A stretch of 20,670 nucleotides of DNA from an uncultured bacterium. GTDB taxonomy: Bacteria; Hydrogenedentota; Hydrogenedentia; Hydrogenedentales; JAEUWI01. Positions 5,113 through 19,302 of the stretch are shown piece after piece. The DNA lies in NCBI GenBank assembly GCA_963977445.1, contig CAXBPH010000110.1, forward strand, positions 1 to 20,670, in the 5' to 3' direction. The translations under genes were made by a program, and so were the position numbers. How positions within the stretch are numbered: the first letter of the stretch is position 1; each line of letters begins with the position of its first letter. The notes under the pieces are model-generated. The model saw only the letters and a list, made by a program, of their open reading frames with translations, was not told the DNA's origin and did not search any database.

Positions 5113-7608
5113 CTATGCGTTGGCCTCGGTTACCGTCAGAATCTGCCCGGAACGCTCCGCGATGTTGACGAGGTGGTCCCCCACACGCTCGAGGTGGGCC
5201 AGGGCATCCAGATAGATTACGCCGACTTGCACATCACCGGTGCCCGAGTCCAGCCGAAATACATGCTCGTCGGTCAGACGTTTGACCAATACTTTGAGCT
5301 CTTCATGTACTCGCTTGGCCACAACAACACTATCAGCATTACCTTCATCAAGCATGTCATAAATAGGTTCGAATCCGGCGTTCAATTGCACCTGGAAGGC
5401 TCGAATCCCTGCCCGGTCTTCATCGCTCAGGACCAGACTGTTTTCCTTGAGTAGACGATGGAGTTCGACCTGCGACTCGGCATGATCACCCAGTCGCTCG
5501 GCGTCGTTTACGGCGTGAATCAGCGCGGGAATAAGGGCAGATTCGTCGGTATCCAGGCTCTCGCGAGACAATTCGACCAGATACCCGGTAATTTCATGCT
5601 GGAGCTTGTCGATTACATCTTCCCGGGCCAGAATCGAGTCAATGAGGCCGACCTGATTCTCGCACAAGAGCTCGCAGCTCTCGTTCATGGATTTTTGGCC
5701 CTTGCGAACCATGAAGACGACTTCTTTGACCGCCTGCTGAAGTGCTATCGCGGGGGCGGTCAGCAACCTTGGCTCCAGATATTGCAAGACCGAATCCCGC
5801 TCAGATTCCCGGACTGGAATCAGGAAATTACATACCCGCGCCATAGTCCCGGTAAAAGCCACAAAGAGGACCACGTTGAACACATTGAACACCGTGTGGG
5901 CATTGGCGACGTGGCGCAAGAGATTTTCATCTTCCCCGTTGAGCACCTCCCCGGGCGTGAGCCAGTCGATGAATCCGAGAAACAGAGGATGGCCATCCCA
6001 CAGGGGAATAAACAACAGAATATACATATAGGCCGCGCCAAAGACGTTGAACAAGGTGTGGGCCAGGGCGGCGCGACGGGCATTGCGGCTGGAACCGATG
6101 GCCGCGAGGTTGGCCGTGATGGTGGTACCGATGTTATCACCAAGAATCAAGGGGACGGCGGTCTCAAAACCGATGAGTCCCTGACTGGCGAGGGCCAACA
6201 CGAGTCCCACGGTGGCCGAGCTGGACTGAACCACAACGGTGGTCACGGTACCGATAAGGATACACATGAATGCTCTTCCAAAGGGAATCATGCCGCCGTC
6301 TACAGGCGAACAATCAAAGAGCTGGAACCAGGCCTTAAACTCCGGACTGTATTGGAGGGGCTTGAGAATCCCGCCCATGGTTTTCATTCCCAAAAAGAGC
6401 AGTCCAAATCCAAGCAACACCTGCCCGAGGAACTTCCAGTTCTGACGCTTGAAAAACATCATAAACAGAAGGCCGATGGCAATGGCCGGATAGGCCAGAT
6501 CGTCGAGCTTGAATGCAATAATCTGTGCCGTTACCGTGGTGCCGATATTGGCACCGAAAATTACGCCGATGGCCTGTTGAAGGGTCATCAATCCTGCGTT
6601 GACAAAACCCACGGTCATCACGGTCGTTGCACTCGACGACTGGACCATGGCGGTCATTAGCGTTCCCGCAAAAACTGCCATCAGGCGATTGCGGGTCATA
6701 AACTGGAGGAAACTTTTCAGCCGGCGGTCAGCCATTCGTTGCAGGCCTTCCGACATGAGCTTCATACCGAAAATGAATATGGCCAACCCTCCGAAGAGGA
6801 TAATTATCATCTCGCGGGAATCGGTCGCCATGGCTTCGAAAGTCACACTTCGAACCCTGAAGCGCGTGTTTGCGGGGAGGTTCGGCCGACTATCAATAAC
6901 CTCTGCATCGGCGAAGTAACGCTGAATCTTGCTGCCAAGAGTCCACGAAGTTTCCGCGATTCCGCTGGCGTCAGTCAGAACACGGTGGGCCTTTACTTTG
7001 GCCCCTTCGCTATTACCGGCCACGCGGAAATTTATTTCTACACCCTCCGCGGGCGTCCCGTCAGGATTGGTCAGCTGAAGACCCATGGGACCGACGCTGC
7101 CACCGGTGATACTTTCAAGGTCTTCCCCGATTCGCTGTACGCCCGCAATCACGCGAAATTCTACCTGCCCTGCATCGGGATACTCTGGCAAACTTGCCCG
7201 GATAATAACATCACCGGGCAGGTTGCCCGTCCGCACGCGGGCACGGGCGGTGCCGGATGAGTCCGTGGGCGCATCTATGATGGGTGTTTCGGTATCTTCA
7301 AACACGGCTCCGGTATCGGGATTTTCGATTTCGAAACGTACTATCTGGTCCACCGCCACTCCCCGGGAACCCGTGCCGCCGAGCATCCCGGGACGAACAG
7401 GTCCCTCTACAACGACGCGAAGGGGCTTTTTGATGAGTTCCCCGTAGAGCGCCATCTGATCATCGCCAGCCGCGTGCTTGTCCTGACTTATTTTATCGGG
7501 GACGACGGTTTCGGTGCTGTCACAGCCAGAGACAAAGACCACCAACAGGGAGACGATAAGAAGGGTAAAAGCTGTGGGGACGTTTCTGAGGGTGTTGTTT
7601 GGAAACAT
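5113..7608 (-). CDS. Na+/phosphate cotransporter (NptA/YjbB, PNaS family) with C-terminal PhoU-like domains and an N-terminal lipoprotein-like signal plus two Ig-like domains
   Basis: GGLAIFIFGMKLMSEGL, two QSSSAT...G[A/D]NIGTT repeats, PhoU-like DAERLGDHA and LERVGDH. Start chosen at ATG 7608, giving a signal peptide ending VFVSG-C. Confidence 0.9.
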   Translation of the reverse strand: MFPNNTLRNVPTAFTLLIVSLLVVFVSGCDSTETVVPDKISQDKHAAGDDQMALYGELIKKPLRVVVEGPVRPGMLGGTGSRGVAVDQIVRFEIENPDTGAVFEDTETPIIDAPTDSSGTARARVRTGNLPGDVIIRASLPEYPDAGQVEFRVIAGVQRIGEDLESITGGSVGPMGLQLTNPDGTPAEGVEINFRVAGNSEGAKVKAHRVLTDASGIAETSWTLGSKIQRYFADAEVIDSRPNLPANTRFRVRSVTFEAMATDSREMIIILFGGLAIFIFGMKLMSEGLQRMADRRLKSFLQFMTRNRLMAVFAGTLMTAMVQSSSATTVMTVGFVNAGLMTLQQAIGVIFGANIGTTVTAQIIAFKLDDLAYPAIAIGLLFMMFFKRQNWKFLGQVLLGFGLLFLGMKTMGGILKPLQYSPEFKAWFQLFDCSPVDGGMIPFGRAFMCILIGTVTTVVVQSSSATVGLVLALASQGLIGFETAVPLILGDNIGTTITANLAAIGSSRNARRAALAHTLFNVFGAAYMYILLFIPLWDGHPLFLGFIDWLTPGEVLNGEDENLLRHVANAHTVFNVFNVVLFVAFTGTMARVCNFLIPVRESERDSVLQYLEPRLLTAPAIALQQAVKEVVFMVRKGQKSMNESCELLCENQVGLIDSILAREDVIDKLQHEITGYLVELSRESLDTDESALIPALIHAVNDAERLGDHAESQVELHRLLKENSLVLSDEDRAGIRAFQVQLNAGFEPIYDMLDEGNADSVVVAKRVHEELKVLVKRLTDEHVFRLDSGTGDVQVGVIYLDALAHLERVGDHLVNIAERSGQILTVTEANA

Positions 7609-7801
7609 GCAAAGCACCTGAGACTCGTTGAAGTTAGAAAGTGGATATAACGATAGATGGATTGATGAATCCTGGCGAATCGAAAAAGTTCCCATCTGAA
7701 TAACACTTCCCGGTGGGGAAATGACACTCCACGGGCGAAATGTTAACATCTTGCTAGTCTTTGCATCAATTTTTGCTAGGACGAAACCCCATCGACCGTA
7801 G

Positions 7802-7882: not shown

Positions 7883-8905
7883 ATGCGCCCTGAAGTCGAC
7901 CTTCGAAGTGATACCCTTACCCTGCCAACATCAGCTATGCGGGCGGCCCTTGCCAACGCCCATGTCGGGGACGATGTCTTCGGCGAGGATCCCACAGTCC
8001 GCGCGCTGGAAAGCCTGGCGGCGGAGCGTCTGGGCAAAGAAACGGGACTATTTCTTCCCACGGGAACGATGGCCAATCTGGTGGCTTTCCTCTCCCAGAG
8101 CAATCCCGGTGATTCGGTTATCCTGAGTGGAGAATCCCATCCCTACCGTTACGAAGGGGCCAATTTCGCCCGTTTTGGCGGTCTCCTACCCCGCACCCCG
8201 GCCAGCATTTACGGAAAAATCGATGTTTCCGGAATTGCCGCCCATCTGATGCAGATTGACGACCCCCACTTCTCTCCCACGACCCTGGTCAGTATTGAAA
8301 ACACCACCAATCTGGGTGGCGGTGCCTACTACACCGTGGCGGAGGTGGAAGGCATCGGTGCCCTCTGTCGCGATACCGGGTTGCGGCTCCATTGCGACGG
8401 TGCACGCCTCTTTAATGCGGCGGTGGCACAGAAGGTGGACGTGGGGTCCCTTGCGGCACCCTGCGACAGTGTCAGCTTCTGCCTGTCGAAAGGCCTGGGC
8501 GCGCCCGTAGGGTCCCTCCTGGTGAGCGATGGCGAAACTATCCACCGTGCCCGGCGCATACGGAAGCAACTTGGTGGCGGCATGCGACAGGCGGGTATCC
8601 TTGCGGCGGCGGGCATCTATGCGCTGAATCACCACGTAAATGATCTGGCAGAAGACCACCGGCGGGCCCGAAGCTTTCGGGAGCACCTGGAGGGGGTGGG
8701 CATCCCATTCCCCTGCCCTACCCCGACCAACATCGTACTCATTTCTTCGCCCGACCCGACAACCCATGTCGCCGCCCTCGCCCAAATGGGGGTAAAGGTG
8801 CTGGCGGTAGGGCCGTCGGTCATTCGCGCCGTTTTTCATCGCGATATCGATGACACGGCGCTGAATCATGCAATCGAGTCGTTTACCGCGGTCATGGCTC
8901 CGTAG
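7883..8905 (+). CDS. ltaE: Low-specificity L-threonine aldolase (PLP-dependent)
   Basis: DLRSDT, GDDVFGEDPTV, PTGTMANL, IENT, HCDGARLFNA, CLSKGLGAPVGS (PLP lysine), GGGMRQAG. Confidence 0.93.
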   Translation: MRPEVDLRSDTLTLPTSAMRAALANAHVGDDVFGEDPTVRALESLAAERLGKETGLFLPTGTMANLVAFLSQSNPGDSVILSGESHPYRYEGANFARFGGLLPRTPASIYGKIDVSGIAAHLMQIDDPHFSPTTLVSIENTTNLGGGAYYTVAEVEGIGALCRDTGLRLHCDGARLFNAAVAQKVDVGSLAAPCDSVSFCLSKGLGAPVGSLLVSDGETIHRARRIRKQLGGGMRQAGILAAAGIYALNHHVNDLAEDHRRARSFREHLEGVGIPFPCPTPTNIVLISSPDPTTHVAALAQMGVKVLAVGPSVIRAVFHRDIDDTALNHAIESFTAVMAP

Positions 8906-10499
8906 TCATGGACTCGGCCAGCTGGTCTGGCGTCGCGCTTTCCAGCGCCAGGCGAATTTCCAGGGAAAGCACACCGTCTTCGTAGCCAAGCATCGCGCTC
9001 AGCTCAGGTATGCGCTTGGCCGACTGTTGTATTTCGGCAAAGTATTGCTCCACGGAGGCTTCGTCTTGCCCACGTATCATGCCCAGGCTCGCATAGATCA
9101 TAGCGCCCTCGTAAAGGGTCTCGACCAATTCAGGTGGGCGCACCCGCATAAACATGTGCTTCGCCTCGGAGACGGTCGCCTGTTCCATCGTCTGGGTCGT
9201 AAGCATGGCGACGTGATAGGGATGCAAAACCGTGTGAAAGTCATTGCCCGCCCAGAAGCCACTGGGCTCGACTATATCTCCCCAGCCCAAAGGCAGGCGG
9301 GTGACGCCATCTTCACCCATCACGAAGGGGCCCACGCCTTCGGGGGCGGCGGTACCATCGGTGGGGGCAGGAGGCGGCAACAACATGTTGAAGCCCTCGA
9401 GATTGGGCTTTAGAGAAACATCCAACACGGGCATGGGGACCATGCCGTCCAGATCGAATCCTGCCAGTCGGATCGAAAAACGGTCCCCCAATACGCCTGC
9501 CATCTCTTGCAGGGCGGACAAGGCGATTTCCTGTTCCGCAGCGGTCAACTGATCCAGGGGACCAAATTGTACGACTGCTTCCTGCAGGGCGTTGCCTGTC
9601 AACTGGTCCAGGGTGTCCCACACGCGCGCCAGGGGCACACCAAAGTCGCCGGCGATGACCAGGCCACCGTGCTCTGGCGCACTCATCTCACCACGTGGTT
9701 TGGGCAGATTGAGCGCATCAAACTGTGCCCGCCACTCCGGTTTCAATATGGCGTGACTCGAAAATGCGATGGCCGTCGCCGCAAGATCGAGACGGCAGTC
9801 GGCCTGCTCGAAGTACGCACCGAGGGGCTCGTCCTGCGAAAATGCGACCCGTCCTTCAAGATCGTCGACACCGTCGAGACCGGCCGTCTCCAGGGTTTCG
9901 ATGGCGTCGGTTTCGCGCAGGGTCAATGCCCGAACAATAGCATCACGGGATGGGCTGAAGATGAGGGTACGTCCTCGAACGGCGTAGTAGCCGTCCACGT
10001 TCTCAAGGCGACGCAGGGCGAGGCCTCCAGCGTGCTCATCTTCGATACCATCCATAAAACGGTGATAGCGTTCGAGGAGGGCGCCGATGCGACTCATTCG
10101 TGTAACCACGAGGAGGTCACTGAACGCAACGAAGTCGGTGCCCGACACATAACAGACATCGGACACCAGATTGTTTAAGACCCAATCGGGATAGCCAAAG
10201 CTGTTCCCCATCCATGTGGGTATTTGCGCGTAGGCATCAGGGACGAGACCGGTTTCCCAAAGGGCCGAATGGGCCAGTTCCTGGCGGGAATAAAGCAGAT
10301 CCCGGGCCTGAAAATAATAAGTCTGGTTTCCGGGGATAACCCGCTCAACCGGACAATTGTCTCGGGTCGTCCAGATCAGCCAGAGGGTACCCACCGCCAA
10401 GGAAATCAGCGCAACCCAACGAATAAGTCCGCCGGGGCGCCCGGGCCCACTGTAGTTTCCACCCCTTGGAGGTCGATAGCTTCGTATCGCTTCACTCAT
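8892..10499 (-). CDS. Hypothetical membrane-anchored protein (535 aa)
   Basis: Long ORF with a single N-terminal TM (LIRWVALISLAVGTLWLIW); ATGA overlap with the upstream gene at 10496-10499; 14-bp convergent overlap with ltaE. No family recognised. Confidence 0.8.
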   Translation of the reverse strand: MSEAIRSYRPPRGGNYSGPGRPGGLIRWVALISLAVGTLWLIWTTRDNCPVERVIPGNQTYYFQARDLLYSRQELAHSALWETGLVPDAYAQIPTWMGNSFGYPDWVLNNLVSDVCYVSGTDFVAFSDLLVVTRMSRIGALLERYHRFMDGIEDEHAGGLALRRLENVDGYYAVRGRTLIFSPSRDAIVRALTLRETDAIETLETAGLDGVDDLEGRVAFSQDEPLGAYFEQADCRLDLAATAIAFSSHAILKPEWRAQFDALNLPKPRGEMSAPEHGGLVIAGDFGVPLARVWDTLDQLTGNALQEAVVQFGPLDQLTAAEQEIALSALQEMAGVLGDRFSIRLAGFDLDGMVPMPVLDVSLKPNLEGFNMLLPPPAPTDGTAAPEGVGPFVMGEDGVTRLPLGWGDIVEPSGFWAGNDFHTVLHPYHVAMLTTQTMEQATVSEAKHMFMRVRPPELVETLYEGAMIYASLGMIRGQDEASVEQYFAEIQQSAKRIPELSAMLGYEDGVLSLEIRLALESATPDQLAESMTTEP

Positions 10500-12856
10500 T
10501 CTACTTCCCCTCGCTTCAAGGTATGGTTGGTATATTCCCCGGGCATTCCCGACTCGCCGAGACGTGCGACGCTCATCAGGCCCCGTTGGGGCAGGAGAAT
10601 CACGCTCTGCCGCGTCTGGCTATTCCAAAGACGACGACGTTCGGTGTCGCCTACGGTCCCATCGGTCAGGGTACGTTTTAACTCTTCGACCCCTACGATG
10701 CGCTCACTTCCGAGGGCACTTTCGAGGTATTGGTAGCGCTCCCGCGTTGCTTCATCCGACCCTTCGTGAACGATGTCGACACCAAAGAGGAGCCCTTCTT
10801 CCACGTTGCGGAGGGCAATTCCGTCGCCCAGAGAGATGACTGCAGTCATCCAGCCTGATTTTCCCGGCCCGGAAAGGAGGACGCGGCCATTTTCATGTTG
10901 CACGGCGTTGCCCAGGTATTCCAGCGCCGCTTCATAGGTCGCAGTTCGCTGCAGGATGTCACGCAAAACAAAATCTATAGGCAGGCCTATTGCGCCCCCA
11001 TCGGGCTGCCCGTCCAATTCCAGAACCGCCACGGTAACGCCGGCATCGTTCATGCCCACGAACGCACCCATCTGCCAATCGAAACCGGTTTGCAAATAGA
11101 CGTGGCCCTCCGAGGGCTCTACCGTAGTCAGGACGGACAGGTCCGTCCAGGGCCAGTCGAGATTGAGCCCGATAATCGTTTGGTCGGCCCCCGCACGCTC
11201 GCCCACGATCGCGACTACCGTACTCATAGGTGATTGAAACCAGGGGGCGTCATCGCCGGGGTAGACAGACGCCCCAACGCTTTGCAAAAGCCAGAAGGCA
11301 TCTACTGGCATCGCTACCGCCGCAGCGCCTGCTTCCACTTCGGCCAACACCGTTTCATCAAGGCGCTGTAGCATGGGCCGGGCTTCGGCGGCCAAAGGAA
11401 GCATCGCCAACGGGGTGGGGTCAAGCATCGGGGGAAAATAGGGCCAGGCACCACCAACGGGACGGAGATCGCCCTTTCGGACCGCTTCAAGCACAACGGT
11501 GTTGTATCGGGCCCGCATGGACGATGCAAATCGAACTGCCCGCTGACGACCCCGCTCCGCCGCGTCGCCGCGCAGGGCAATTTCTTCGCTCTTCGAGGTG
11601 GACTCCGTATTCGTCGAATCGGCCGTTGGGGGATTTTCTACCGGCACCCCGCGAAGCATGGCATCCACATTGGCGTAGAGCCAATCGGCCATGTCGGGAC
11701 CATAGGGATGCCGACTGGCCTCAGGTGTCCCCGATGCAAAACCGGACCGCGGTACGATATTGCCAATGTAGGCATTGGCGGCGGCGACGGTAAATTGATT
11801 CTGGTAGCCCAGGGCGGACGCTTGCTTCCGCAGCGCCAATCCAATTTCCACATCGGGCACGGCCGGTAGGAAAACGAGGAGGAGTCCATCGATTTCCAGG
11901 GCCTGAAGTACGGTCGTCGAAGGCATGGTGGCATCGGCAATGGTCGAAGGCAACTGGACTTCCCGGTAATAGGATTTCAATCGGGCGTCGCGGAAGGTCA
12001 TCTTGTTGGCGACTTCCTTGGCACGACCGGCCAGCAGGCGCCCTACCGCTTCAATGGCAGCCCAGCTCTGTTGGCTTTCGGGATTGGCGGTCACCTGTCC
12101 CCCACCGGCTCCGAGCAGAAACATGGCCTTGCAGCCGGGATCGGTGAGTTCCTCCATGGCGGTATAGTAGGCACCGGGATAGTCGGCCGAAAATTGATAG
12201 CGCTGCGCCGCGGGTACCATGTGTGGCATGGCCGCAAAATTGGTCGCAACGGCAATGGCCTGGCCATCAGCATTGTCTACCCGTATAACCCCGATTTGCT
12301 CATCGACGGGGCCACCGGTTTCATTGGCGTTGGCGGAGAGTACCTGTTGACGCGCTGTTCCGTAGCCGACAGTCGCGCGCTGGGAAACCGCCTCGGCTCC
12401 CTGCATGGAAACGATGATTTTTTCCGCGATCTCTTCCACAAGAACCGGGTTATATCGACCGTCGCTCCAGCGAAGGGGCAAGCTCTCTTCCATGGAACCC
12501 GGACCGTTGCCTGTATGGGTTGCGGTGAGAAAAATATTCTCTTTATTGGCCAGGCCTGCGGCAAGGGCAACAACCCGTTCCCGAAGGCTTTGGGGGATGT
12601 GATGTATATCGAGGGTCAGAAGATAAATCTTCGTCGTGCCATCGTCGAGACGAAGACAACGAATCCACAGTGGATCGTGCTCGGCCGTCGCTGGCCGTCC
12701 CTGCCGCGCGGGATCACCTGCAAGTGGCGTACCCACGGAAAAGGTCAGGCGTTCCGCATGGGCACCGGCCTCCAGGGCATCGACCGTGGACCCGTTCCCT
12801 AAAAGAACGGGAGCCAGGATACAGAGTAGAAGACGCTTTATTAATGGTGTGTTCAT
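10496..12856 (-). CDS. Exported fusion protein: neutral-ceramidase-like domain plus C45/acid-ceramidase-type Ntn-hydrolase domain, both with degenerate catalytic motifs
   Basis: HDPLWIRCL, ATHTGNGPG, GPVDEQI, NFAAMP, SADYPG in the N-half; LRGDAAERGRQ, PMSTVVA, GLNLDW, GMNDAGVTV, GLPIDFVLRDIL in the C-half. Signal peptide; ACAGGA RBS before ATG 12856 (alternative TTG at 12874). Confidence 0.8.
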   Translation of the reverse strand: MNTPLIKRLLLCILAPVLLGNGSTVDALEAGAHAERLTFSVGTPLAGDPARQGRPATAEHDPLWIRCLRLDDGTTKIYLLTLDIHHIPQSLRERVVALAAGLANKENIFLTATHTGNGPGSMEESLPLRWSDGRYNPVLVEEIAEKIIVSMQGAEAVSQRATVGYGTARQQVLSANANETGGPVDEQIGVIRVDNADGQAIAVATNFAAMPHMVPAAQRYQFSADYPGAYYTAMEELTDPGCKAMFLLGAGGGQVTANPESQQSWAAIEAVGRLLAGRAKEVANKMTFRDARLKSYYREVQLPSTIADATMPSTTVLQALEIDGLLLVFLPAVPDVEIGLALRKQASALGYQNQFTVAAANAYIGNIVPRSGFASGTPEASRHPYGPDMADWLYANVDAMLRGVPVENPPTADSTNTESTSKSEEIALRGDAAERGRQRAVRFASSMRARYNTVVLEAVRKGDLRPVGGAWPYFPPMLDPTPLAMLPLAAEARPMLQRLDETVLAEVEAGAAAVAMPVDAFWLLQSVGASVYPGDDAPWFQSPMSTVVAIVGERAGADQTIIGLNLDWPWTDLSVLTTVEPSEGHVYLQTGFDWQMGAFVGMNDAGVTVAVLELDGQPDGGAIGLPIDFVLRDILQRTATYEAALEYLGNAVQHENGRVLLSGPGKSGWMTAVISLGDGIALRNVEEGLLFGVDIVHEGSDEATRERYQYLESALGSERIVGVEELKRTLTDGTVGDTERRRLWNSQTRQSVILLPQRGLMSVARLGESGMPGEYTNHTLKRGEVE

Positions 12857-12887
12857 AGGAGTTCCTGTGGTCAATTGGAAGGTCCGC

Positions 12888-15028: not shown

Positions 15029-15451
15029 TCAGCGAATCGCTTCGATGTCTTTTGCCGTCGGGGGGACCGATGATGGCTGGGCAACGTCACCCTCTGGAGC
15101 AGGTGCCTGGAGAACGTCCTGTGCCAAGACGCCGTTGCTGTCCTCTTCGGGTAACAACGGAAGTCCTCTTGATTTCACCGCCGTTCCCAGATCGACGATT
15201 TCCGCCGCGTGGGAGGCCTCCAGATTCTCGCGGGCTGCATCAATTGCTGCGCGCAGGAGCGACGTTGATTTTCCACCGGTCGCATCGGACGAGTAGGTTA
15301 CCTCAGGAGAACGCCCTCCGGATACGTGCACGAAAGAGTCGTGAACTTCCGAAGAGGATTTCGCCCTGACGCGCACGGAGTCCACAGTCCGCGTCTGATA
15401 CGGTGGCACGACAACGGGGGCCACCGTTTTATTGGTTCCATCCACATACAT
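15029..15451 (-). CDS. Hypothetical protein (140 aa), probably in the sigma-28 regulon
   Basis: ATG at 15451 preceded by GGAGGG; sigma-28-type promoter 50 nt upstream. Confidence 0.65.
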   Translation of the reverse strand: MYVDGTNKTVAPVVVPPYQTRTVDSVRVRAKSSSEVHDSFVHVSGGRSPEVTYSSDATGGKSTSLLRAAIDAARENLEASHAAEIVDLGTAVKSRGLPLLPEEDSNGVLAQDVLQAPAPEGDVAQPSSVPPTAKDIEAIR

Positions 15452-15500
15452 GACCAAACCCTCCATTGTTTGGTAGCTGACTACTACTTCACCGTCCCTT

Positions 15501-15528
15501 TTATCGGCAGCCAAGTACGGAAACTTTA
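15501..15528 (-). promoter_or_regulatory. Sigma-28 (FliA/SigD) promoter
   Basis: Minus strand TAAAGTTT-N12-GCCGATAA: both boxes match the FliA consensus, with spacing TAAA-N16-GCCGATA as in SigD-type promoters. Confidence 0.8.
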
Positions 15529-15565
15529 GCCTTCCGACAATCGCCACTACAAACCAACAGAAACA

Positions 15566-17827
15566 TCAATAAAACTTGAGGCCATTGACGGTGGTTTGGG
15601 TGTGAGACTTTTTCAGGAAGCTGGCAATGGTATCGCCTGTCAATCCCGTGTCTGGCAGGGAAACGGCAGCAATGTAGTCGGGGTCGAGGCCCCGGTGGAA
15701 TTCACCCTCGTACTGCAGGGCTTCGAAGGGACTCAGGCCTCGGTCATAGTGGAGGGCCACGCCGGGTGTATACCCCATTTCCTGTCGCTTTTTGTGAATC
15801 TTTATGGTTGTTTTTGTTGTTTTTGGAAATTTAGTGGCGTCTATATCCGCAAAGCGTTGGCCCACGCTCCGTTGGGTCTCCCCCACCACCGATATTCGCA
15901 GACTGCGATTGCGACTTTCCTGGGCCGCCTTTTCGAGCACGCGATTGACAATGCGTTTGCCCAAATCCCGCGCTTCCGCCTGTTCGTGCATCTCAATACC
16001 AAAAAGGGCTTTCACCGCCTCATTTAACCCCAATACAGACAAAAAGCCACGAGAATTGCGCAGTGGAAGGACCGCTCCATCGGACCGAGAGGCGGAAAGC
16101 AGGGCCAGGGGGCCAACCGTACCACGGTCCATAAGGCCTTCGAGAAAATCGTAACGTTCGGCGAGGGCCACCGCGACGAGGGAGACGCGCTGATCGAGCA
16201 GGTCCATGAAGCGGGATTCTTTTCCCGCCGCGTAGGCGATGCGGGGCAGATTGAGGGCCACGCGGTGAAACACGGCATCGAGGGGCTGACATGGCGTGAG
16301 CTCCTGGCCAACAACATCCTCTCGGTTAAAGTAAAAACGAATGCCAAATCCGGCTTCTACCAACAGTGCCGCTTTGGCGAGAAAGGCGTCGCTGCCCGGT
16401 GACTGGAAGAAATCGGGTCCCAGACAAATAGCCACGGCAGGTGCCACGACGGGCAGCCCTTCACAGGTTGCCAGGACCTCCAGAAACTTCCAGGCCAGTT
16501 GCTGGGCGGGATGCTCCAAGGCGCGGTAGGTGCAATCGGGTACGAGGCCCTCGGGCCCGGCGACCTTCTGGTCAGCGAGGTGGGCCGGCACGTTCCAATA
16601 GAGACGCAGCTCCGTCCCGGGCCCGTCTCCCCCGTGGGCGAGGGCGCGGTAGGCGAATTCGTAGACCATCATCTGGGCGAACTGCTGGAGCTCCTGGGGA
16701 GACAATTCCCGGACGTAGGGGGCAAAATGGTAATTGACGGCATCCCAGTGAATGGGCCCGGCCACACACGCCTGAAAGCCGGCGGTGGCTTTCGCCAATT
16801 GGGCGAGGAAGGTAATGGCGTTTCGGGGTGGTGAGGCAAAATCGGGCGCACCGGGCAAGCCCACCCCGTAGGTCGCAACCATCGCAGGCGACAAGGTTAC
16901 CTGATGAAGCCGGTCGGGCTTGTCGAGGTCGTATAGGTGGATATCGCCTTCCAGATGGGCATCACTCACATGGGGCACGTGTATCTGGGTCAGGGCATAT
17001 TCTTTTTTGACCGCGCCGGCCAGAACCCGGTCGGTCGCAACGGGATCCCGCCCGGTGGTGGCGTCGGTCAGGCCTTTGATGATTCGCTCACAATCATAGA
17101 GGGGCACGCCCAATCGACGGTGTCGGTCGCGGTATTCCCGCAAGTCATGTGCGACCAGACGGGCCGCGACCAATTCACGGACGAGGGAGGTCGTCAGGGT
17201 CTCGATTTGGGCCGATTCCAACTGCTGCTCGACTTCGGTGGCCACGACGAGCGCCATGGACTGCTCCAGGCCGGTCTCCCGCACGAGGGCATCGACGATT
17301 TTGTCCCGATTCCAGGAGGTCAGCGTATCGTCACTGGTGCGAACGAAAAGGTTTCGGTCGTCGCGGGGTTGCTCCCCATTATCTCTCGCCTCTTCCAACT
17401 CCCCCAGCAACAGGCGCATATCGCCCTCGCGCAGGCGGCGAATACGAGCCCGACGGTCCCGATAACGGGCGTAGGCGAAGGCGGTGCGCACGTGGGTCAT
17501 CTGGATGAGGACCCGTTCCACGGCGTCGTGAATATGGTCCACCGTGGGCACGTGACTGCCGAGCTGTTTGGTCAGATAGATGGTGACGGCCCGGGCAAGG
17601 CTTTGGGCGAGGTCCTGGTCGCTACCCCCAATCGAATGGGCAGCCTGAAAGATGGCGTTGGCGATTTTGTTGCGATCGAAGGCCTCTTCCCGCCCATTCC
17701 GCTTGAGAACGGTGGAAAAGGGCTCGGGAGCCTGCACAAAAGGCAGGGGCAGGGACATTTGGGCATCGAAAATGCCTTCATTGTCCAGAATATCGTCAGA
17801 TTGCTTGTCGGAATCGTCGTGGAGCAT
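15566..17827 (-). CDS. NrdD (class III ribonucleotide reductase)-like protein with two ATP-cones; catalytic cysteine motifs and glycyl-radical domain absent
   Basis: ATP-cone 1 VLKRNGREEAFDRNKI...AYARYR; cone 2 VRTSDD..SWNRDKI; RLGVPLYD, AHLEGDIHLYDL, WDAVNYHFAPY, LNLPRIAY, GLNEAV, RFADID, EGEFH. Ends at VNGLKFY without CxxC..CxxC or RxxGY. Confidence 0.85.
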   Translation of the reverse strand: MLHDDSDKQSDDILDNEGIFDAQMSLPLPFVQAPEPFSTVLKRNGREEAFDRNKIANAIFQAAHSIGGSDQDLAQSLARAVTIYLTKQLGSHVPTVDHIHDAVERVLIQMTHVRTAFAYARYRDRRARIRRLREGDMRLLLGELEEARDNGEQPRDDRNLFVRTSDDTLTSWNRDKIVDALVRETGLEQSMALVVATEVEQQLESAQIETLTTSLVRELVAARLVAHDLREYRDRHRRLGVPLYDCERIIKGLTDATTGRDPVATDRVLAGAVKKEYALTQIHVPHVSDAHLEGDIHLYDLDKPDRLHQVTLSPAMVATYGVGLPGAPDFASPPRNAITFLAQLAKATAGFQACVAGPIHWDAVNYHFAPYVRELSPQELQQFAQMMVYEFAYRALAHGGDGPGTELRLYWNVPAHLADQKVAGPEGLVPDCTYRALEHPAQQLAWKFLEVLATCEGLPVVAPAVAICLGPDFFQSPGSDAFLAKAALLVEAGFGIRFYFNREDVVGQELTPCQPLDAVFHRVALNLPRIAYAAGKESRFMDLLDQRVSLVAVALAERYDFLEGLMDRGTVGPLALLSASRSDGAVLPLRNSRGFLSVLGLNEAVKALFGIEMHEQAEARDLGKRIVNRVLEKAAQESRNRSLRISVVGETQRSVGQRFADIDATKFPKTTKTTIKIHKKRQEMGYTPGVALHYDRGLSPFEALQYEGEFHRGLDPDYIAAVSLPDTGLTGDTIASFLKKSHTQTTVNGLKFY

Positions 17828-17982: not shown

Positions 17983-19302
17983 CTACTTCGCGTTGGGTGC
18001 GCCTTCTGCACTCATGACACTCCCCTGCTTCTCCATATCGTCGAGGACCACCTGGAGGGTATCGTGGACCGCCCGGGCCGCCTCGCTCAACGACGCTTTG
18101 TCCATGGGATGTGCTTCATCGGGATCGTCGTGCACGTCGTAAAAACGGCCATCGGCGAAGAGCTTGTATTGGGTCGTTCGGGCGGAGCGCCCCCGCCATT
18201 GGTTGATATTGCCCCAGCGGGGGTCGTAGTGACAGTATAGCCAGGGTTTCTCGTCGATGGACTCTCCGCGCAGGAGGGGAAGAATTGACCGTCCGTCGAG
18301 TGGGCTTTCGCGGTACTCTTCGATGCCTGCCAGGTCGAGGAGGGTGGGAAAGAAGTCTTCGAATCCGACCAGGCCTTCGTGGAGACCTCCCTGCTTAATC
18401 GTTCCGGGCCAATAGGCCATGAGGGGAACGCGGGTACCTGCGTCGGTCATCATCCCCTTACCGCCCGCGATTTTTCGTTCGCCCATCATGGACGTTATCT
18501 TGCGATTGGTGCCGTTGTCTCCCGTGAAGAAGATGATGGTATCTTCTGCCAGCCCCAGGGCGGCAACGTGATCGACGACCCGCCCCACTACGCGATCGGT
18601 ATAGGCCATCATGTCGGCAAAGTGCTTGTTGTCATCCTTGTGGCGGTCCCCCTTCTCCCATTCCGGACTGTCGGGTGTGGGCACGAAGGGGTTGTGTACG
18701 AGTGCCATAGGAAAGTAGAGTAGAAAGGGCTTTTCCCGGTTGCGGGTCATGAAGTCACAGGCAAAATCGGCGAACACCGTGGGACCGTAGGTAGCTTCAT
18801 TTCGGGGCAGGGCAACCCCATTCTGCTCGATGAGGGGATTGGCGTAGCGTTCACCGTCCTTTTTCTCGTAGGTGAGTTGCCAGAGACTGTATTCGTCGAA
18901 TCCGAAATGGGCGGGCAGAGATTTGTCGTGTCCAAGCTGCCACTTACCCGCGATAGCCGTGGCATAGCCTGCGGACTTGAGGGCTTGGGCGAAGGTCTTC
19001 TGGGCGGGATCCAACGTGCCGAATTGGCGATAATTCCGGAAGTTGTATTGCCCCGTCATAATTTTCACCCGCGTGGGCGTGCACAGGGGTTGGCTATAGC
19101 CTTGGGTGAAGCGCATGCCTGCGGCAGCGAGGGCATCAAGGCGTGGCGTGGCGTAGGAGGTGCTGCCGTTGACCCCAAGGCATTCATAGCCCATATCATC
19201 GGCCATGATGAGGACGATATTGGGTTGACGCGCCGAGACCGACATGGTGATGACGATAGCGAGGAAGAACGCACACGCTCGACTTGGAATTCGGATGGGC
19301 AT
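17983..19302 (-). CDS. Exported formylglycine-dependent (S1) sulfatase
   Basis: PNIVLIMADDMG, LCTPTR..IMTGQY (CxPxR), GKWQL, VHNP, GDNG, GTRVP, LDGRS; signal peptide from ATG 19302. Confidence 0.93.
   Translation of the reverse strand: MPIRIPSRACAFFLAIVITMSVSARQPNIVLIMADDMGYECLGVNGSTSYATPRLDALAAAGMRFTQGYSQPLCTPTRVKIMTGQYNFRNYRQFGTLDPAQKTFAQALKSAGYATAIAGKWQLGHDKSLPAHFGFDEYSLWQLTYEKKDGERYANPLIEQNGVALPRNEATYGPTVFADFACDFMTRNREKPFLLYFPMALVHNPFVPTPDSPEWEKGDRHKDDNKHFADMMAYTDRVVGRVVDHVAALGLAEDTIIFFTGDNGTNRKITSMMGERKIAGGKGMMTDAGTRVPLMAYWPGTIKQGGLHEGLVGFEDFFPTLLDLAGIEEYRESPLDGRSILPLLRGESIDEKPWLYCHYDPRWGNINQWRGRSARTTQYKLFADGRFYDVHDDPDEAHPMDKASLSEAARAVHDTLQVVLDDMEKQGSVMSAEGAPNAK

Follow-up and report, generated by a model that had tools for sequence, protein, structure and literature searches.

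A catalytically dead class III ribonucleotide reductase of Hydrogenedentales with a clamp-type N-terminal motif, a possible nucleotide sensor

A class III reductase fold without its catalytic parts

The window, a stretch of 20,670 nucleotides from the genome of an uncultured member of the Hydrogenedentales, contains on its minus strand an open reading frame of 753 codons, zero of them internal stops, which encodes a protein related to the class III ribonucleotide reductase (RNR) NrdD and is called here the pseudo-NrdD gene (Table 1). Residues 266-743 of its product match positions 13-495 of the 562 positions of the Pfam profile NRDD (PF13597; E 3.3e-45), and two further Pfam matches are ATP-cones. 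On the NCBIfam NrdD model the protein reaches 120.5 bits, below the cut-off of 326.35, and its intact orthologue from a sister order reaches 412 bits. The AF2 model of the barrel has a mean pLDDT of 88.9, the top Foldseek matches of the model are class III RNRs (E 1.9e-22), and Pfam, AF2 and Foldseek together identify the ten-stranded alpha/beta barrel of RNRs, the final strand of which (E749-752 in the model) is also the C-terminal end of the chain. A DnaA-like AAA+ domain is not matched in Pfam or NCBIfam, and the NrdR-type Zn-ribbon DNA-binding domain is absent, TIGR00244 giving 13.5 bits against a cut-off of 124.65 and over the cone region only.

Table 1. Features of the pseudo-NrdD gene and its product, with positions in the window
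Feature	Residues	Position	Strand	Remarks
Pseudo-NrdD gene (P0001)	753 aa	15566..17827	minus	clamp-type motif in a predicted disordered N-terminus, two ATP-cones and a class III RNR barrel that is catalytically dead
Linear motif EGIFDAQMSLPL	17-28	17744..17779	minus	conserved; predicted disordered
QMSLPL	23-28	17744..17761	minus	matches the Hda-type hexameric beta-clamp-binding motif
ATP-cone 1	39-133	17429..17713	minus	two-nucleotide type; K42, R43, N/D44, R46, Y122, R126 and R130 kept
ATP-cone 2	159-236	17120..17353	minus	inner-cone type, KRxG absent; same conservation as in intact ancestors
Lost NxN substrate flap site	254-261	17045..17068	minus	N.N in 2/176 family members
NrdD-type alpha/beta barrel	262-752	15572..17044	minus	AF2, Foldseek; without Zn-ribbon and glycyl-radical loop
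Degenerate HxHD...RPYC segment	297-309	16901..16939	minus	substrate-site Cys lost; D305, R306 kept
Shortened finger-loop region	502-525	16253..16324	minus	CCRL radical-Cys motif deleted

An alignment of 176 dead NrdDs, read against 57 intact relatives, confirms a class III RNR fold without both active-site cysteines, about 17 finger-loop residues, the NxN flap and the Zn-ribbon/glycyl-radical domain. The RPYC motif reads RLHQ, with Q309 at the position of a Cys that is present in 57 of 57 intact relatives and is not among the common residues of the dead family at this site. The triphosphate-binding Asp of HxHD is kept in 55 of the 176 members, and both His are largely kept. The span from R502 to N526, measured slightly differently in the two sets, has a median of 24 aa in the 176 family members versus 41 aa in 50 intact enzymes, and each column of the CCRL finger-loop motif is gapped in 173-175 of the 176 rows. 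C513, the Cys of LTPCQP, aligns with a column that is mostly Trp (W in 116/176) and is therefore ruled out as a displaced radical Cys. The Asn columns of the flap, as defined by PMC11226230, are invariant in 57 of 57 intact relatives. Paired CxxC motifs are found within the last 100 aa of 0/176 members, and a search of the family for RxxG[YF] returns two matches, neither of which is a Gly loop. The helices at the expected specificity site are moderately conserved (Q385 in 106/176, E390 in 139/176).

These results bear out most of the preliminary description, which had read the gene as an uninterrupted NrdD scaffold ending before the Zn-ribbon/glycyl-radical domain. The motif changes listed there hold against real relatives: besides the changes at RPYC and CCRL, TPAES has become ETQRS, YYTNS has become GYTPG and RGGQ has become HGGD. 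The reported absence of an adjacent nrdG extends to the source genome as a whole (94% complete), in which the best TIGR02495 match is 32 bits against a cut-off of 131 and a tblastn search with NrdG-like ORFs of 13 relatives gives one weak match.

The two ATP-cones had both been described as looking well preserved; both are conserved, but they are not equivalent. The nucleotide-binding residues of the Prevotella copri NrdD, K7, R8, D9, R11, Y83, R87 and R91 (PMC11226230), were carried to cone 1 by alignment, and the corresponding positions are retained across the family, with K42 and R43 each in 174 of 176 members, D/N44 in 170, R46 in 139, an aromatic residue or His at 122 in 169, R126 in 164 and R130 in 169. 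Cone 1 thus has the residues of a two-nucleotide ATP-cone (PcNrdD/PaNrdA type) and cone 2 does not: the latter reads VRTS...RELV, as it does in the intact ancestors, and the KRxG pattern occurs in cone 1 only. The last helix of cone 1 is very Arg-rich. No other part of the protein is as well conserved as the cones: columns conserved at 85% or more number 35 of 96 and 33 of 82 there versus 4 of 90 around the finger loop, and of the 11 pairs that gave usable dN/dS values, 10 show a lower value in the cones than in the barrel. The kept ligand residues suggest that cone 1 may act as a sensor of ATP and dATP.

Distribution and origin of the family

Of 92 Hydrogenedentales genomes, 86 carry the dead NrdD, in 75 of them matched at E<1e-60 and in 11 as a divergent copy. 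Open frames of about 755 aa are retained across the family at 35-78% identity; in a check for split or cone-only forms, 14 shorter matches were mostly located on short contigs or marked partial. Pairwise dN/dS is 0.03-0.17 for the whole protein and 0.03-0.18 for the barrel. Because of this distribution and these dN/dS values, the loss of catalysis is neither decay nor artefact, which agrees with the earlier proposal of a repurposed pseudo-RNR under selection: the same losses are seen order-wide, and the three outcomes that would have spoken against it did not turn up, since no full-length catalytic version was found among the orthologues in the order, no Cys lies at the radical position with a separate Gly-radical subunit found alongside, and the gene does not evolve neutrally.

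The dead NrdD descends from the phylum's own rsmD-nrdR-nrdD-nrdG enzyme. Two sister-order genomes (G041 and G042) carry the intact orthologue in this operon, together with NrdG2, NrdR and RsmD, and the dead copy occupies the ancestral position, minus nrdG, in 21 of the 86 genomes, belonging to five families. The two intact sister-order NrdDs and seven dead copies form one clade (SH-aLRT 98). A FastTree of 80 rows leaves the degenerate lineages unplaced because of their long branches. In the source genome, rsmD-nrdR lies on another contig than the pseudo-NrdD gene; the 172-aa ORF downstream of the latter is its neighbour at the genus level only. Neither the operon origin nor the N-terminal motif (residues 17-28) figured in the preliminary description.

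A related-locus scan queried with seven intact relatives returns catalytic-type genes, of which the best 80 of 587 matches were considered. Among these, 21 of 79 relatives have lost the Gly loop (RxTGY) and kept CCRL and the Zn ribbon, and 10 of the 21, from Omnitrophota, Ratteibacteria and TA06, lie near nrdR, as do 43 of the 79 catalytic-type relatives. The RxTGY loss in those relatives probably arose separately from the one in Hydrogenedentales (AU p=0.042).

The N-terminal clamp-type motif

The N-terminal region of the dead NrdDs carries a family motif, EGxFDAQ[LM]S[LF]P, in which Q23 is present in 176 of 176 members, L/M24 in 175, L/F26 in 170, G18 in 172 and D21 in 173. The commonest hexamers are QLSLPL (28), QMSLPL (17), QLSFPA (12) and QLPLPL (7). 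The invariant residues coincide with positions 1, 2 and 4 of the clamp motif, and QMSLPL, with M counted as aliphatic, conforms to Q-phi-x-[L/M]-[F/L] or Q-phi-x-[L/M]-x-[F/L]. Residues 1-30 have a pLDDT below 50, which predicts disorder; the surrounding segment is acidic, with a net 3.5 acidic residues in the 15 preceding the Gln, the linker is 30% Pro, and the distance from the Gln to the cone hardly varies (19 aa in 162/176). Two clamp-binding proteins of Escherichia coli provide models in the accessible text of the respective sources: Hda binds the clamp through PAQLSLPLYL in a disordered N-terminus with a KD of 0.38 uM (PMC11139829), and CrfC binds it through an N-terminal QLALP (PMC6374313).

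The strict motif definitions, as given in the accessible text of PMC11139829, are matched by only 76 of the 176 family motifs, and 65 of the 176 read Q-L-x-F followed by small residues. Positions 4 and 6 covary (L4 with a large residue in 93, F4 with a small one in 65, other combinations in 18), in counts taken over kin that are not independent. No clamp-type motif precedes the cone in any of 79 catalytic-type relatives among the best 80 of 587 matches; a looser pattern also flags 3 of 31 catalytic-type rows. One highly eroded copy (L057, 26% identity) has QLELW at the motif site, and at least 7 of the 11 most divergent copies have no Gln there (FLFDLFG or LFDLFG in six, GLPFP in one). Clamp partners of the source genome carry similar words, namely DinB (QMPLF), DnaE (QFSLF), MutS (QTYLF) and MutL (QLAVP). 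Such words often arise by chance: 608 of the 4929 called genes contain the generic pattern, and a check of 11 strict matches left a single one with a plausible link to DNA, a radical-SAM protein with QLSLF at its C-terminus; the genome-wide scan was dropped as support because most of its matches are unrelated proteins. The extended motif is unique to the pseudo-NrdD gene in the genome (38 bits versus 16 for the next match). The EGxFD upstream of the Gln is as conserved as the Gln itself and lies outside any published clamp motif compared, as far as the accessible texts go, which suggests that the binding site is larger or of another kind.

Possible functions and known counterparts

As the catalytic parts have been lost, the sensing domain kept and a clamp-type peptide gained, the protein likely reports nucleotide status to replication and no longer produces DNA precursors. 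Our preferred reading, a tentative one, is that this catalytically dead but selected class III RNR senses ATP/dATP and is anchored to the sliding clamp (DnaN) by the gained N-terminal peptide. The barrel would still dimerise as in NrdD and serve as a scaffold; two ATP or dATP would bind cone 1, and the nucleotide would switch cone-cone contacts and the oligomeric state, as in the P. copri NrdD. The QMSLPL peptides of the oligomer would fill the clamp pocket in the manner of the Hda and CrfC peptides, so that the dATP:ATP ratio would set the protein load on clamps, where pseudo-NrdD might compete with DnaE, DinB or MutS, or recruit a further factor. Among the 41 genomes searched, none has an Hda above the family cut-off. 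If the reading holds, the allosteric switch of an RNR would be directly linked to the replisome in a lineage with no stand-alone Hda, and dNTP status would be coupled to clamp occupancy, polymerase choice or initiation. More speculatively, the RNR may have been converted once, in the ancestor of the Hydrogenedentales, to a dATP/ATP-gated clamp-binding factor, as one branch of a wider trend in which dead class III RNRs were turned, more than once, into regulators that sense nucleotides.

The main rival, which we consider unlikely but worth weighing, is that the dead NrdD is a co-regulator of NrdR that senses (d)NTPs, binds NrdR through cone-cone contacts or through EGxFDAQL, and tunes the repression of RNR genes. 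The occurrence of nrdR directly upstream of the dead gene in the 21 operons, its presence in 92 of 94 genomes, the NrdR-box-like sites ahead of nrdR in several of these operons (found with a model built on a starting consensus and retrained on 15 local sites), and the repeated Gly-loop loss near nrdR among the best 80 of 587 subfamily matches speak for it. However, the adjacency goes back to the intact operon, as its frequency in catalytic-type relatives among the same matches indicates, and it is broken in about three quarters of the genomes, that of the source included. No pair of boxes lies ahead of the pseudo-NrdD gene there; one weak site at window position 17983 (8.2 bits) was rejected because it has no partner box and is not conserved in relatives, and a scan for promoters and terminators gave results at chance level. 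The mechanism of NrdR, as described in the accessible text of PMC9110341, requires no partner, and the Q-phi-x-phi motif is left unexplained unless NrdR binds it.

Slightly less probable is a nucleotide-switched scaffold in which the 12-residue motif binds another lineage-specific partner and resembles a clamp motif by chance. It would account for the conservation of EGxFD beyond the needs of clamp binding, the fixed spacing to the cone, the more than half of motifs that miss the strict definition, the uniqueness of the extended motif in the genome and the Arg-rich helix of cone 1; it fits poorly with invariant residues falling at clamp-motif positions, in a disordered and acidic N-terminus like that of Hda, and with the QLELW of the eroded copy. 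New non-radical chemistry or ligand binding in the barrel (e.g., of a nucleotide phosphate), regulated by the cones, is improbable: the barrel is selected, confidently folded by AF2 and conserved at H291, H297, H299, D305, R306, N365, N526, R529, R658 and D663, but almost all of them show the same conservation in the intact enzyme and look like structural residues, the HxHD Asp and the TPAES loop are degenerate, and the active-site region has gained no new invariant polar residue.

The preliminary description had also considered a regulatory subunit that pairs with a true NrdD, and this part of its interpretation is not supported, in contrast to the selected pseudo-RNR. A full canonical NrdD co-occurs in 53 of the 92 genomes of the order, but it belongs to another subtype, which has a single cone and is accompanied by an nrdG of its own; some 37-39 of the 92 show no catalytic NrdD, and none is found in 12 of 12 genomes of the source family, including the source genome and the single-contig G008, in which the dead gene is nevertheless conserved. 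Such heterodimerisation is thus very improbable. A decaying pseudogene, an artefact of assembly or annotation, or an RNR that stays active by means of a separate radical subunit can practically be dismissed, since the frames stay open under selection and, although the T. maritima NrdD is active without a Cys at its crystallographic finger tip (PMC4493059, accessible text), that enzyme has SCCR, a Zn ribbon, Gly621 and nrdG, none of which is present in the dead family, and a free Gly/Zn domain, a PF01228 protein or NrdG was not found in the source genome.

Among known systems, the clamp-tethered sensor proposed here shares its barrel fold with the class III NrdDs of P. copri (8P23/8P28), Streptococcus thermophilus (9D3X), T. 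maritima (4COI) and phage T4 (1H78), and it also has their two-nucleotide ATP-cone residues and the ancestral operon place after nrdR. The nearest NrdDs by sequence belong to the double-cone HLHDLGFIDRPYCS/ISECCRL subtype of G041/G042, WOR-3, Eisenbacteria and Omnitrophota. Pseudo-NrdD differs from NrdD in lacking the substrate Cys, the finger-loop Cys, the NxN flap, the Zn ribbon, the glycyl radical and NrdG, and in having the additional N-terminal motif. Hda, the regulatory inactivator of DnaA, combines an AQLSLPL-type hexameric motif in a disordered N-terminus with a nucleotide-binding body (PMC11139829, accessible text), whereas in pseudo-NrdD clamp binding is predicted from sequence and the AAA+ domain is missing, so that it cannot stimulate ATP hydrolysis by DnaA in the manner of Hda. 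CrfC is a dynamin-like oligomer of unrelated fold that binds nucleotide, in a GTPase domain rather than in ATP-cones, and can bind several clamps through its N-terminal peptide (PMC6374313, accessible text). NrdR, a repressor with a Zn ribbon and an ATP-cone, uses the cone as a non-catalytic ATP/dATP sensor (PMC9110341, accessible text) and is encoded by the ancestral neighbour gene; pseudo-NrdD differs in its RNR-type cone, its whole dead barrel and the lack of a DNA-binding domain. Literature searches, with most subscription papers and supplements outside their reach, returned no paper that describes a catalytically dead NrdD or the binding of an RNR to the clamp, and no case of a dead-RNR adaptor of class III or from a bacterial chromosome.

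Enzyme folds without catalysis have been reused for protein interactions in other enzyme classes and hosts. ImuB is a dead Y-family polymerase with a clamp motif that works as an adaptor, and the beta-herpesvirus R1 homologues M45/UL45 are dead class I RNRs used as adaptors. The usual account of how bacteria match their dNTP supply to replication invokes the allostery of RNRs and the action of NrdR and DnaA on transcription; if the clamp link is true, it would be a third, post-translational connection. The subfamily provides a graded series for studies of pseudoenzyme origin, from intact enzymes through loss of the Gly loop, the Cys and the Zn ribbon to gain of the motif. The dead gene is annotated in the source records as a working anaerobic RNR, and surveys of metagenome-assembled genomes that count PF13597 matches therefore overcall anaerobic dNTP synthesis.

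A class III reductase fold without catalytic parts

The pseudo-NrdD matches the Pfam NRDD profile over residues 266-743 (profile positions 13-495 of 562) and the ATP-cone profile twice, with an NrdD family score of 120.5 bits, far under the cut-off of 326.35. Its AlphaFold model, built with a 130-row alignment as input, has a mean pLDDT of 88.9, and its top structural matches are class III RNRs. Among the best 120 of 681 homologues, the source names, where given, are mostly Candidatus Hydrogenedentes/Hydrogenedentota; the family member P0066 is labelled Candidatus Bathyarchaeia, and its contig is possibly misbinned.

The family alignment holds 176 distinct proteins, each 690-840 aa long, drawn from the best 120 of 681 matches and, in a second list, from the first 63 further identifiers among the best 150 of 2925. 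The intact P0163 was excluded, and the rows were set against 57 complete relatives. The finger-loop CCRL segment is deleted, leaving a span of 24 aa versus 41 in intact enzymes, the Cys of RPYC is absent, TPAES is scrambled, and a Zn ribbon or Gly loop was found in none of the 176. The NxN flap, described as substrate-binding in P. copri NrdD (PMC11226230), is kept in two members and the HxHD Asp in 55. On each catalytic feature tested the protein falls outside the active class III RNRs; it is catalytically dead, as the preliminary description had proposed from one sequence. The Cys of LTPCQP (C513) was rejected as a displaced radical Cys, as it sits in a Trp column of the alignment. T. maritima NrdD, described as active although its finger tip has no Cys, is no precedent, because SCCR, Zn ribbon, Gly621 and nrdG are still there (PMC4493059).

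Conservation within the 176 rows is concentrated in the cones. Cone 1 keeps the equivalents of P. copri K7, R8, D9, R11, Y83, R87 and R91, from a cone whose residues are described as coordinating two ATP or dATP and forming cone-cone contacts (PMC11226230); cone 2, of the inner type, lacks KRxG, and the inner cone of P. aeruginosa NrdA binds no ligand (PMC9669993).

Retention and origin in Hydrogenedentales

The dead gene is present in 86 of 92 Hydrogenedentales genomes, each at least 90% complete, and was not found in the other six. Seventy-five copies have E-values below 1e-60, with contig ends truncating a few; the other 11 are divergent, and nine of these were translated. The C-terminal domain is absent from all of a separate set of 37 translated copies. 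Of 13 pairs compared, 11 gave a usable dS, with several pairs near saturation; dN/dS in these 11 is 0.03-0.17, and 10 of them have a lower value for the cones than for the barrel. The earlier suggestion of repurposing is supported by these data: the gene is under selection, not decaying.

The two sister-order genomes encode an intact NrdD with two cones (412 bits, with RPYCS, ISECCRL and RVTGY) in the gene order rsmD-nrdR-nrdD-nrdG; in Hydrogenedentales the dead gene takes the place after rsmD-nrdR, and nrdG is missing. In a 20-row tree, made by a quick method and with the window's pseudo-NrdD on a long branch, seven dead copies and the two sister-order enzymes form one clade (SH-aLRT 98). Shared operon position and clade identify the dead gene as the class III RNR native to the phylum, which lost its activity in place and has since often been relocated. 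The sister-order enzymes have an extra C-terminal domain of ~100 aa after the Gly loop, with CxxC and glutaredoxin-like by eye.

A candidate clamp-binding peptide

Residues 17-28 carry EGxFDAQ[LM]S[LF]P, a motif that is new compared with intact enzymes. It is conserved at Q23 (176/176), L/M24 (175), L/F26 (170), G18 (172) and D21 (173), lies 19 residues ahead of K42 in 162 of 176 members, follows an acidic lead-in, precedes a Pro-rich linker and is modelled as unstructured (pLDDT <50, residues 1-30). The top hexamers are QLSLPL (28), QMSLPL (17), QLSFPA (12) and QLPLPL (7). In E. coli Hda, the peptide that binds the beta clamp is PAQLSLPLYL, in the disordered N-terminus (KD 0.38 uM; PMC11139829), and the clamp motif of CrfC is an N-terminal QLALP (PMC6374313). 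By the definition in a review, clamp motifs read Q-phi-x-[L/M]-[F/L] or Q-phi-x-[L/M]-x-[F/L] (PMC11139829). Against the clamp reading, only 76 of 176 motifs conform to it strictly, and in 65 others small residues come after Q-L-x-F. The window's genome encodes DnaN and the partner words QMPLF (DinB), QFSLF (DnaE), QTYLF (MutS) and QLAVP (MutL), and in DinB-family loci of relatives a clamp-type word, mostly Q[LM]xLF, was parsed in 22 of 28. The pseudo-NrdD is not Hda, which was found above its family cut-off in none of 41 genomes searched, nor is it NrdR.

Chance matches to such words are common: among 4929 genes called with a simple gene caller of our own, 608 match the generic pattern, and 1 of 11 strict-pattern matches checked is plausibly a DNA protein. 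What speaks for the clamp reading is therefore not the match by itself but the motif's invariance, its position and when it was gained. In the 79 catalytic-type relatives the sequence ahead of the cone has no clamp-type motif; with a looser pattern, 3 of 31 catalytic-type rows were flagged. The EGxFD part has no explanation under the clamp reading, and among the 11 most divergent copies 7 or more have lost the Q, although one other reads QLELW. In the fast-evolving family f13 the motif lacks the Q and reads LFDLFG, and DnaN there is likewise divergent (39% versus 63-93% identity), which may reflect general rate acceleration.

The pseudo-NrdD is a real order-wide RNR pseudoenzyme, and a clamp-tethered sensor is a testable hypothesis for its role, put forward tentatively, as the likeliest reading, at somewhat under even odds. 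The dead barrel would dimerise and present the cones, these would switch between ATP-bound and dATP-bound states, and the N-terminal peptides would dock in the clamp pocket, so that nucleotide status would set clamp occupancy, with a presumed downstream effect. A co-regulator of NrdR is a less probable alternative: in its favour, nrdR lies directly upstream in 21 of 86 genomes; against it, in the window's genome rsmD-nrdR is on a different contig and no NrdR-box pair precedes the dead gene. A scaffold for some other partner is slightly less probable again, and new chemistry in the barrel is improbable. Pairing with a true NrdD, also raised in the preliminary description, is contradicted here: 53 of 92 Hydrogenedentales genomes (plus two fragments) have a canonical NrdD, of a different, single-cone subtype accompanied by its own nrdG, but none of the 12 from the window's family does, a single-contig genome among them. 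Such pairing therefore cannot explain retention in this family; as a general account it is very improbable. Decay or cryptic activity can be dismissed almost entirely, given the retention and dN/dS and, in a search for a separate radical partner that the preliminary description had called for, no second NrdD, free Gly/Zn domain or NrdG in the genome (94% complete), which encodes class I NrdAB, monomeric-type NrdJ and NrdR. NrdJ sits behind a ThyX-like gene (by eye), and nrdR has a weak box pair upstream.

Beta-herpesvirus M45/UL45 are dead RNRs reused for other jobs, and ImuB is a dead enzyme carrying a clamp motif. Dead NrdDs or RNR-clamp binding are not described in the literature searched, nor mentioned in main-text passages of two family-wide RNR surveys (PMC9531940, PMC9669993).

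Other degenerate relatives and genes

Among 79 relatives from outside the order, taken among 80 of 587 matches listed, 21, plus one truncated, keep CCRL and Zn ribbon and lack the Gly loop (RxTGY); nrdG is absent from the fetched flank in 20. This loss is probably independent of that in Hydrogenedentales (AU p=0.042), and these proteins appear to be at early steps on independent routes to a pseudoenzyme; the double-cone subfamily seems prone to losing catalysis. More eroded forms occur in other phyla; named members of those keeping the Zn ribbon include Deltaproteobacteria and Synergistaceae, P0200 has QERLF near its N-terminus, and the Atlas holds degenerate cone+NRDD clusters in Planctomycetota.

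Features of the window, its genome and relatives
Feature	Location	Strand	Remark
Pseudo-NrdD ORF, 753 aa	window 15566-17827	-	ORF reading of window
ORF, 172 aa (probably shorter), low-confidence	window 15029-15547	-	directly downstream of dead gene; genus-level conservation only; no family
Na/Pi-cotransporter-like membrane protein	window 5113-7749	-	N-terminal extension (by eye)
535-aa protein	window 8892-10499	-	no Pfam match
Neutral-ceramidase-like protein	window 10496-12874	-
Working RNRs (NrdAB, NrdJ) and nrdR region, window's genome	C269:532-4507, C77:19312-22330, C125:6729-7847
NrdR-box-like site, window's genome	C77:19007
DnaA-like protein, window's genome	L091:1258-3447 (contig C28)	-	729 aa
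Sister-order NrdD	L093:5049-7883	-
Sister-order NrdD	L094:1309-4164	+
Family f13 loci	L042, L043, L054, L195-L197; L071, L072, L088
Gly-loop-less near-intact double-cone NrdDs	L115, L116, L119, L129, L132-L134, L146, L157, L162		Omnitrophota, Ratteibacteria, TA06 among them
Gly-loop-less near-intact double-cone NrdDs	L117, L118, L121-L126, L130, L131		Eisenbacteria among them
Gly-loop-less near-intact double-cone NrdD	L161
Dead NrdDs, Zn ribbon kept, no CCRL or Gly motif	P0187, P0191, P0193, P0196, P0197, P0200, P0204, P0205
Dead NrdDs, Zn ribbon kept, no CCRL or Gly motif	P0210, P0220, P0221, P0224, P0246, P0251, P0257

The DnaA-like protein has an MshEN-like N-terminal segment (by eye), a long low-complexity middle and a DnaA-like AAA+ domain; a DNA-binding domain IV is not obvious. 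Its gene lies upstream of one for a PilB-like ATPase, and most of 41 genomes searched have a second long frame of the DnaA-like kind.
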